From IMG/VR virus record IMGVR_UViG_3300034106_003629: 64,000 bases of DNA. One strand, 5' to 3'. The notes below the pieces were generated by a model. It searched no databases, was not told where the DNA came from, and saw only the letters and a program-made list of their open reading frames with translations. Origin of the DNA: an uncultured virus (IMG/VR IMGVR_UViG_3300034106_003629). Taxonomy: Duplodnaviria > Heunggongvirae > Uroviricota > Caudoviricetes. The translations under genes and the position numbers were made by a program. This document shows, one piece after another, positions 39,255 through 60,512 of the stretch. Numbering within the stretch: position 1 is the stretch's first letter; every line of letters starts with the position of its first letter.

Positions 39255-39362
39255 GTAGTAAGACCATCAGGGAAATGGTGGTGATACTATGCTCCCCGCA
39301 CCCTCAGCGGGGATATGAGAGACGTTTTTATACTCCCCATAGGTCTCGGTTAGTGGGAGTTA
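39255..39362 (-). ncRNA. Structured psbA leader, PhotoRC-II-like motif
   Basis: CCCCGC/GCGGGG and ACCAU/AUGGU stems, GAGAC/GUCUC pairing; position directly 5' of phage psbA. Confidence 0.65.
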
Positions 39363-39401
39363 CAAACATTAAAGATTTGTTACGTTCCTTAACGTTTGAT
39401 G

Positions 39402-54208: not shown

Positions 54209-54218
54209 AACCAAAGAA

Positions 54219-54620
54219 GGACGCGCCACCTAGTTTTGACTGAACTAGGAAACAGGCGGGAGAGATTCCCATCCGCACCAGTCGGCATATTTAAAGTCCA
54301 TCCGACGAGGACATAAGGGGTCAGATTGACTCCACCACTTAGTTTTAAGAAACTAAGAAAAGTTGGGTTAACTTTGATATTTCGGAGATACCAAAGAATG
54401 CACATAAAAACAGCACATCCCAAAGTTTAAGTTTGATAGCAAAAGGAATTGTGAGAAGACCTCCAATAACTTTAATCATCAAACCATATTTAAATTCTCC
54501 CCATAACATAGTTTGATAACCAATTATAAGAAGAATGTTTCCAATCCACCGAAGTAAATCAGATTTAGACATAAGGGGTTGCTCCCGACCAGGGCACTTT
54601 TATAGTCATTCCGAGACTAG
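54219..54620 (-). ncRNA. manA-like structured RNA, modular and interrupted by an ORF
   Basis: GUCUCGGAAUGAC...GCCCUGGUCGGGA; two UUUC.UAGUU...AAAACUA.GUGGYG hairpins; GCGG.UGGG/CCCGC; family match recalled, not searched. Confidence 0.55.
54345..54572 (-). CDS. 75-aa three-helix membrane protein
   Basis: Three hydrophobic segments. Confidence 0.65.
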   Translation of the reverse strand: MSKSDLLRWIGNILLIIGYQTMLWGEFKYGLMIKVIGGLLTIPFAIKLKLWDVLFLCAFFGISEISKLTQLFLVS

Positions 54621-54883: not shown

Positions 54884-54884
54884 G

Positions 54885-54957
54885 TGCTCCTTGCGTGGAT
54901 CGAACACGCCTCAGGCGAATTATGAGTTCGCTGCATTCACCAGATTGCTAAAGGAGC
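54885..54957 (-). tRNA. tRNA-Met/Ile2 (CAT)
   Basis: Cloverleaf; GCGAA-CTCATAA-TTCGC; TTCGAT T-loop. Confidence 0.9.
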
Positions 54958-60116: not shown

Positions 60117-60188
60117 TGGGCGAAGAGGGGATCGAACCCCCGACCGACTGGGTGTAAACCAGTAGCTCTACCGCTGAGCTATTCGCCC
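60117..60188 (-). tRNA. tRNA-Val (TAC)
   Basis: Cloverleaf; CTGG-TTTACAC-CCAG. Confidence 0.93.
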
Positions 60189-60190
60189 TT

Positions 60191-60368
60191 AATGAGTAGT
60201 GAGTGCCCACCACTCGCGGAAGACACTTTCCGCAAAAGCTTCACTTTCGTGAAGAGTCAATAGACACGCTATTGACATGTTTTTTGTTACTGGCGGGGGT
60301 GATCAAGTCCCCGACCTAAGCGAACTTAGGATTTAGTAAGGAAGACCCAGACATTTCTAGACCTTCCA
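60191..60368 (-). ncRNA. Unassigned multi-hairpin RNA candidate between tRNA-Asn and tRNA-Val
   Basis: Seven hairpins including UUCG and GAAA tetraloops (see findings). Confidence 0.65.
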
Positions 60369-60369
60369 A

Positions 60370-60441
60370 CTGCCCAGCCTGGGATCGAACCAGGGACCAA
60401 TCGATTAACAGTCGATAGCTCTACCGCTGAGCTACTAGGCA
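60370..60441 (-). tRNA. tRNA-Asn (GTT)
   Basis: Cloverleaf; ATCGA-CTGTTAA-TCGAT; TTGACA-N17-TAACAT upstream. Confidence 0.95.
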
Positions 60442-60512
60442 TTATATTTTTTTATTTAATCACCTATAAATGTTATCACACTTATTTTAAATTGTCAAGT
60501 AGGTTTTTTTAT

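Follow-up and report, generated by a model that had tools for sequence, protein, structure and literature searches.

Several structured RNAs have been described from phages, often in the vicinity of tRNA genes. In the tRNA cluster of phage T4, the small stable non-coding RNAs rnaC (species 1, 139 nt) and rnaD (species 2, 119 nt) adjoin a homing endonuclease gene; their expression has been observed by Northern blot (PMC9697503), and their function is still given as unknown (PMC9697503; PMC12685909). The cyanophage RNA manA (RF01745), which is about 190 nt long and forms one multi-stem fold, has been put forward as a possible riboswitch (PMC2864571). GOLLD and ROOL, which belong to phages or prophages and frequently lie near tRNA islands, are integrated folds of 650-800 nt or more for which oligomers have been shown, and the symmetric kissing loops of OLE and GOLLD covary between palindromes (bioRxiv 2024.12.08.627333). 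A much shorter case is the abiF RNA (RF03085)/RCd22 antitoxin, a protein-binding trans motif; abiF motifs neutralise the AbiF toxin by direct binding, in cis as well as in trans (PMC12373285). Finally, the ncRNA arrays of UG27 reverse transcriptases gain and lose units, which are described as having one common fold and as templating cDNA beside the RT gene (bioRxiv 2026.09.22.753630).

Here, we describe an uncatalogued non-coding RNA of T4-like cyanophages, which is composed of independent, swappable folded modules arranged in a nearly fixed order. It was found in a stretch of 64,000 nucleotides (the window) from the uncultured virus IMGVR_UViG_3300034106_003629, whose record is linear, 125,801 bases long and 61% complete. 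Nine tRNAs were called in the window, the best-ranked tRNA matches are in Synechococcus phages, and genes for a 2OG-Fe(II) oxygenase and a lysozyme occur among the neighbouring ORFs scanned; the source virus appears to be a T4-like cyanophage. The array occupies the whole gap between tRNA-Asn and tRNA-Val (Table 1). As a kind it is like rnaC and rnaD, being structured, non-coding, of comparable size and located in a tRNA cluster, but those are described as two fixed RNAs, whereas the array is combinatorial. It shares with manA the setting of a T4-like cyanophage beside tRNA genes, and manA fills the same slot in loci L377, L397 and L440; however, manA is one fold and the array a string of separable modules. 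Compared with GOLLD and ROOL, the array is short (181 nt) and modular. In contrast to the UG27 units, its modules have different folds and lie between tRNAs, and no RT gene was detected among the 18 neighbouring ORFs scanned.

Table 1. The array and its surroundings in the window (positions counted from the first letter of the window).
Feature	Position	Strand	Remarks
Sigma-70-type promoter-like site	60470..60498	-	10/12 consensus, 17-nt spacer, extended -10; consensus match only; would drive tRNA-Asn, array and tRNA-Val
tRNA-Asn(GTT)	60370..60441	-	3' processing would make the 5' end of the array
Whole cassette array, 181 nt, architecture A-B-K-L-D	60189..60369	-	From folding and spacer survey; identical copies in 7/29 IMG/VR loci
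Module A, 5' hairpin of 12-13 bp with 4-nt loop	60340..60367	-	101/131 spacers; dispensable in some; apex recurs grafted onto other stems
Module B, A-rich strand, hairpin with freely variable loop (60330-60315) and G/C hairpin (60313-60294)	60294..60335	-	62/131 spacers
Self-complementary hexamer in the second loop of B	60300..60305	-	Homologs have GAUC or GGCC at the centre; candidate for a kissing loop, symmetric and intermolecular
A-rich single-stranded linker	60277..60286	-	From folding
Module K, 8-bp hairpin	60256..60276	-	Rare, 2/131 spacers; no variation to test
Module L, 6-bp hairpin with GAAA tetraloop	60239..60254	-	Rare, 2/131 spacers; only together with K
Module D, abutting 6-bp and 8-bp hairpins without linker	60194..60233	-	79/131 spacers; complementary 6-nt loops at 60227-60222 and 60207-60202
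tRNA-Val(TAC)	60117..60188	-	5' processing would make the 3' end of the array; downstream tRNA differs in homologs

A preliminary description of this DNA, made from the letters alone, had placed a seven-hairpin RNA at 60191..60368. The sequence and coordinates are as described, with 60189-60369 (minus strand) as the exact bounds of the spacer, and all seven hairpins are present in the minimum free energy structure, with pair probabilities of 0.75-1.0 except for the loop-closing G-U of the last hairpin (0.61). The energy of this structure is -64 kcal/mol, compared with a mean of -44.1 (sd 4.2) for shuffled sequences (z = -4.69), and 0 of 200 shuffles were as stable. The three-way junction closed by UUACU/AGUAA, which was part of the same description, is not sustained, having a pair probability of 0.21-0.29, being missing from the centroid and showing 52% paired cells across 36 homologs. 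UGUCU, reported at three hairpin tips, does occur three times against 0.21 expected, but the copy in the first hairpin lies partly in the loop and partly in the stem and is kept in only 25 of 46 homologs; it was therefore dropped as a shared tip motif. No ORF of at least 50 aa lies in the spacer, as had been noted, and seven ORFs of 21-38 aa overlap it. Since only these short frames are present and the modules are freely gained and lost, a small peptide is unlikely. As for the strand, which had been considered fixed by tetraloops and G-U pairs, conserved G-U pairs do speak for it, but the plus strand folds too (-57.9); the assignment to the minus strand rests on the flanking tRNAs, the upstream promoter-like site and the conserved G-U pairs.

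An exact scan for hairpin 6 gave 29 IMG/VR loci, 25 of which have a called tRNA-Asn upstream, while degenerate scans gave 90 matches for the last two hairpins, at least 119 for the first hairpin and 70 for hairpins 2-3. The survey comprises 131 distinct spacers that run from one tRNA to the next and contain one module or more; they are 48-410 nt in length and represent 37 architectures. A few spacer rows are mis-bounded, where ARAGORN took a module for a tRNA or overlooked a real one, and L380 is probably spurious. Consequently, the window does not hold a single seven-hairpin RNA, as first thought, and its A-B-K-L-D arrangement is one of 37 module combinations, with hairpins 4 and 5 found in only 2 of the 131 spacers. 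Besides the modules of Table 1, C occurs in 53 spacers, J in 29, E in 27, M in 17, F in 16, H in 13, G in 9 and N in 1, and all such frequencies are biased, because they come from fuzzy motif matching on loci picked by search patterns. The order of the modules is fixed save for one spacer, in which the apex of A is grafted into E. Modules F and M are found on their own between other tRNAs as well, and GC-rich phages, with loci up to 54-63% GC, show a different module order with the loop motifs retained; the modules are therefore regarded as separate units. Two cultured phages carry the array, namely S-SRM01 (A, H, C, D) and S-PM2 (A, B, C, behind tRNA-Thr). Apart from three chance matches, a BLAST search of the element against 50,697 phage records returned nothing but a 29-nt piece in S-SRM01.

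The longest arrays, about 500-720 nt, are those of L536 (1133-1853; about 720 nt, from tRNA-Asn to tRNA-Thr) and L535 (minus strand, ~1100-1730), many-module arrays of GC-rich phages with a cyanobacterial-type permuted tmRNA, and several of their modules were not seen in AT-rich phages. By eye, module F (L008:876-1185 and others) contains a T-loop-like hairpin with a 7-bp stem immediately behind it and resembles a permuted tRNA mimic; it can stand alone between tRNA-Gly and tRNA-Leu. In some phages, an HNH-like ORF (recognised by eye, with no Pfam call; L096:2-556) lies just upstream of a promoter-like site and module A.

The folds of modules A, B and D are very probably real and conserved. 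In module A, pairs 1-12 are each paired in 41-46 of 46 distinct sequences, and several G-U pairs are fixed. Both hairpins of module B are about 99% paired in 36 sequences, with a number of doubly changed pairs not above that of shuffles (435/500). The stems of module D are 98.9% paired in 45 distinct sequences, and 4 of 6 and 7 of 8 pairs show double changes, part of this variation being set by the search pattern, although loci anchored on A add independent stem variants; 0 of 500 shuffles reach the stem score, and slid controls fall to 32-52% paired. The stems of A, B and D covary, that is, selection acts at the RNA level. For modules K and L, which show no variation, the predicted hairpins depend on folding energy.

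An Rfam/Infernal search of the element found no family at the gathering score or at E-values up to 10, the sole overlapping match being the tRNA-driven SpF41 (22.8 vs. 52 bits); likewise, no family was obtained for the array in 20 homolog loci or for the post-Asn spacers of S-SCSM2R, S-H34, S-8S55 and S-PM2. It should be noted that the marine phages S-SCSM2R, S-H34 and S-8S55 have other structured-looking spacers behind tRNA-Asn (L312:1566-1692, L313:1568-1665 and L314:1566-1718, respectively). Homology to rnaC and rnaD was rejected, as the local scores of 16 and 13 are reached by 41% and 91% of shuffles and the module D model finds nothing there. The manA model (gathering score 55.2) has no match in the window (E up to 10) or in 20 homolog loci (E up to 1), while positive controls score 62-120 bits. 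Membership among the ornate RNAs GOLLD, ROOL and OLE was discarded in view of the lack of model matches in the window and the 20 loci and of a length of 181 nt rather than several hundred in one fold. The abiF model has no match either, and A, B, K, L and D share no fold with abiF. CfrI of S-PM2, an antisense RNA to psbA and a homing endonuclease gene (PMC2984593; PMC5931967), is ruled out, the S-PM2 homolog of the array standing behind tRNA-Thr near cpeT. A Y RNA/YrlA acting with Ro60 was set aside as well, with PF05731 in 0 of 5 phage records (controls detected) and no YrlA match in the element. Our literature search found no description of the array. The S-CREM1 paper reports only Rfam families (PMC9964418), and single modules may sit among the anonymous members of the 8,495 candidate RNAs predicted from IMG/VR by Fremin et al. 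2023 (PMC10690425). The earlier suggestion that a phage tRNA precursor contains a non-coding RNA not described before is thus upheld by the missing Rfam family, the covarying stems and the conserved position, 114 of the 131 spacers standing behind tRNA-Asn(GTT).

What might such an RNA do? The array is probably released as a transcript. It would be co-transcribed with the tRNA operon, and the host enzymes that mature the flanking tRNAs would cut it out, leaving a stable RNA with a 5' hairpin. In five loci without tRNA-Asn directly upstream, a promoter-like site ends 6-7 nt ahead of module A, so the same 5' end would be kept there, but this promoter could serve the downstream tRNAs equally well. 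The sequence-conserved loop of each module may then bind in trans to a protein of the host, most likely one involved in defence or RNA handling; this is the least certain step. The array would thus be a variable decoy cassette, which the palindromic loop of module B may dimerise. As a tentative best guess, we favour this picture of a tRNA-precursor-derived RNA carrying swappable protein-binding decoys, which takes up the protein sponge named second in the preliminary description. It is placed ahead of, in this order, cis elements of the tRNA precursor, an RNA-only oligomer, free aptamers and neutral relics; decoys and oligomers are not mutually exclusive. Accessory counter-defence cargo would be expected to look like this, with modules freely gained and lost while their loops stay conserved. 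On the other hand, among 119 viral tRNA-Asn genes picked on the tRNA alone, 30 are followed by the array, 6 by a manA-like RNA and 5 by a third RNA type; the remaining 78 are followed by none of these three scored types, so the array is dispensable.

Binding in trans is favoured because of the company the array keeps, namely manA in its slot, abiF in its clusters and arrays, trans toxin binding and the turnover of modules. manA was detected above the gathering score in all three loci tested of this kind (62-66 bits), where it takes up all of the space from tRNA-Asn to the following tRNA (L377:298-479, L397:549-730, L440:94-280). Since no protein gene follows manA in these slots, a cis-regulatory role does not fit there. 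abiF-motif RNAs occur in the same clusters (L001, 2227-2263; L006; L008; L024; L027) and, as a module, inside the long arrays of L535 (1207-1258, 37.5 bits) and L536 (1802-1849, 32.5 bits; gathering score 37). An Abi_2 gene was sought in five phage records that contain abiF RNA, of which one is a complete genome and four are partial, and none was detected; in the host family, by contrast, 16 of 301 genomes gave an Abi_2 match, and a sub-threshold abiF-like RNA lies upstream in 3 of 10 of those host loci. Possibly, therefore, the abiF RNAs of cyanophage tRNA clusters are orphan antitoxin decoys. For the array of the window the antitoxin link is by association only, because no abiF RNA was found in its own genome, which is 61% complete and in which the search controls gave no signal either.

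Mimicry of a host RNA by homology was also considered and rejected, as neither B nor D turned up as a host sequence. The D pattern has 0 matches in GTDB genomes, and the B pattern has two, both short phage-like tRNA scraps. One of them is S-PM2 sequence in a Clostridium assembly; this contig of 413 bases (L445:1-413) combines S-PM2 tRNA-cluster sequence with adapter-like sequence and is apparently a contaminant. In 151 host-family genomes, strong matches of the B model are confined to two small phage-like contigs, both from one genome, besides five weak candidate matches of 19-21 bits, and the D model gives one weak match, in which the loops are unmatched.

Public sequence data were searched for traces of expression. 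In 24 runs, at most 0.13 of the words were present. Four RNA-library datasets consist of assembled contigs only, which give no ends, strand or level; one 151-nt contig covers 60197-60341, and in another RNA run module B is covered, with loose ends matching modules E and F. These contigs are sequence of relatives in RNA libraries, not proof of transcription, ends or level.

Alternatively, the modules could be cis elements of the tRNA precursor, which guide or protect processing, stabilise the transcript or aid read-through, the excised spacer then being degraded; the D loops may in that case pair within one molecule to give a compact fold. The tie to tRNA genes, above all tRNA-Asn, is in line with this, as are the start of module A 1-3 nt from the tRNA end, the end of D, often few nt from the next tRNA, and the promoter-like site directly upstream. 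However, many viral tRNA-Asn genes adjoin the next tRNA at 1-7 nt, arrays of the length seen in L536, with their many modules, go beyond processing needs, and the downstream tRNA varies freely. We consider a purely cis-acting role rather unlikely.

Similarly unlikely, and ranked next, is an RNA-only oligomer or scaffold, in which the D loops pair head to tail and the B palindrome bridges the pairs into rings or filaments, like a small GOLLD, ROOL or OLE. The loops of the last two hairpins are indeed complementary, as first pointed out, forming six pairs with one U-G; for two given hexamers of this base composition, the chance of such complementarity is about 0.001-0.003. When the D loops were left free in the search (90 matches), loop 1 was the hexamer of the window in 86, and in loop 2 only the second base varied (G 67, A 10, U 8, C 5). 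Across 45 sequences, the loop-loop helix is 96.7% paired and 3 of 6 positions never vary; one pair appears as U-G in 29, U-A in 7 and C-G in 2. However, that pair is broken in 7 sequences and another in 2, and the check for loop-loop covariation found double changes in 0 of 6 pairs in the 45 distinct sequences, with mismatches at two of the six. A metagenome scan for D loop 2 altered at the fourth base gave nine matches, all chance-like, with neither tRNA context nor intact stems. Therefore, the complementarity of the D loops is conserved but tolerates mismatches, the pairing between them is putative, and their fixed sequence would fit a protein-binding surface equally well. The abutting, linker-free hairpins could stack, so that the loops would lie at opposite ends, favouring pairing between molecules; they could instead turn back, with the loops pairing partly within one molecule.

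In the phi29-type pRNA, loop-loop complementarity is able to link molecules, and a pRNA-like role had been suggested for the D hairpins. Packaging in T4-like phages is not known to require an RNA. With no compensation in the D loops, no Rfam match and module D absent from 52 of the 131 arrays, this suggestion is left without support.

A better candidate for intermolecular pairing than the D loops, judging from its base changes, is the palindrome in the second loop of module B (60305-60300), which the preliminary description had not mentioned. Adjacent bases cannot pair inside one loop. In 41 distinct sequences (two chance matches dropped), the centre of this loop is GAUC in 24, GGCC in 16 and GUUC in 1. 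Requiring a change at the second base gave 70 matches (66 GGCC, 1 GUUC, 3 chance), and requiring one at the third base gave 76, of which 71 are GGCC (including L497, which is not in an array) and 5 lie outside any array context; the scan for a change at the first base gave four matches, none in an array. No half-switched state between GAUC and GGCC was seen in these targeted scans. The switch resembles that reported for OLE, whose intermolecular L9.3 loop is backed by the same exchange of GGCC and GAUC (bioRxiv 2024.12.08.627333). On the other hand, the bases next to GGCC are identical in all loops of this type, so that a single event may account for the switch, the outer pair of the palindrome fails in 9 of 36 sequences, and a 6-nt self-complementary loop arises in 31% of loop shuffles. 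Besides, the absence of D noted above and that of B from 69 of the 131 spacers are hard to square with one conserved assembly.

A bolder combination, which we regard as improbable, is an all-RNA counter-defence island, that is, an exchangeable array of a dozen or more folded decoys, one of them an orphan abiF antitoxin, freed from the tRNA precursor, with the B palindromes and D loops linking copies into a multivalent sponge against host defence proteins. If this were true, manA in the slot would also be a trans-acting RNA and not a riboswitch.

Free aptamers, whose modules would sequester small molecules or ions by binding them while infection proceeds, are very unlikely: the larger modules E, F, G and H are, by eye, multi-stem folds with conserved junctions, and a riboswitch candidate, manA (PMC2864571), occupies the same slot without a downstream gene, but the modules of the window are mostly simple hairpins with conserved loops and have no Rfam riboswitch match. 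Least probable of all, and disfavoured by covariation, are neutral relics, hairpins left behind as recombination and homing endonucleases reshaped the tRNA cluster; the mosaic nature of the region and the HNH-like ORF upstream of module A in some loci would agree with this, but compensatory changes and conserved G-U pairs are explained by RNA pairing alone, and the loop motifs survive in the phages of high GC content.

The function of the small RNAs in phage tRNA clusters is unknown even in T4, and the array family offers a tractable handle, with short modules, natural presence and absence variation, the cultured carriers S-PM2 and S-SRM01 and, in abiF, a neighbouring RNA whose biochemistry is known. 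Should the modules be decoys, the tRNA clusters of phages would contain a reshuffled arsenal of RNAs, on a par with the clusters of anti-defence proteins; if B and D self-pair, the array would be a very small natural oligomerising RNA. The enclosure of manA by tRNAs likewise casts doubt on its label as a cis-regulator in these phages.

Several minor observations were made on the tRNA clusters and the window. The array is often followed by atypical tRNA-like genes, called His(ATG) or Leu(CAA), whose Rfam scores do not exceed about 32 bits or are missing altogether (L002:799-872, L004:369-441 and similar). At 54884-54957 of the window, ARAGORN calls a tRNA-Met that Rfam does not report at the gathering score and that may be degenerate. 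Finally, PhotoRC-II and wcaG RNAs were identified by Rfam above the gathering score at 39279-39372 and 54215-54314 of the window, respectively.
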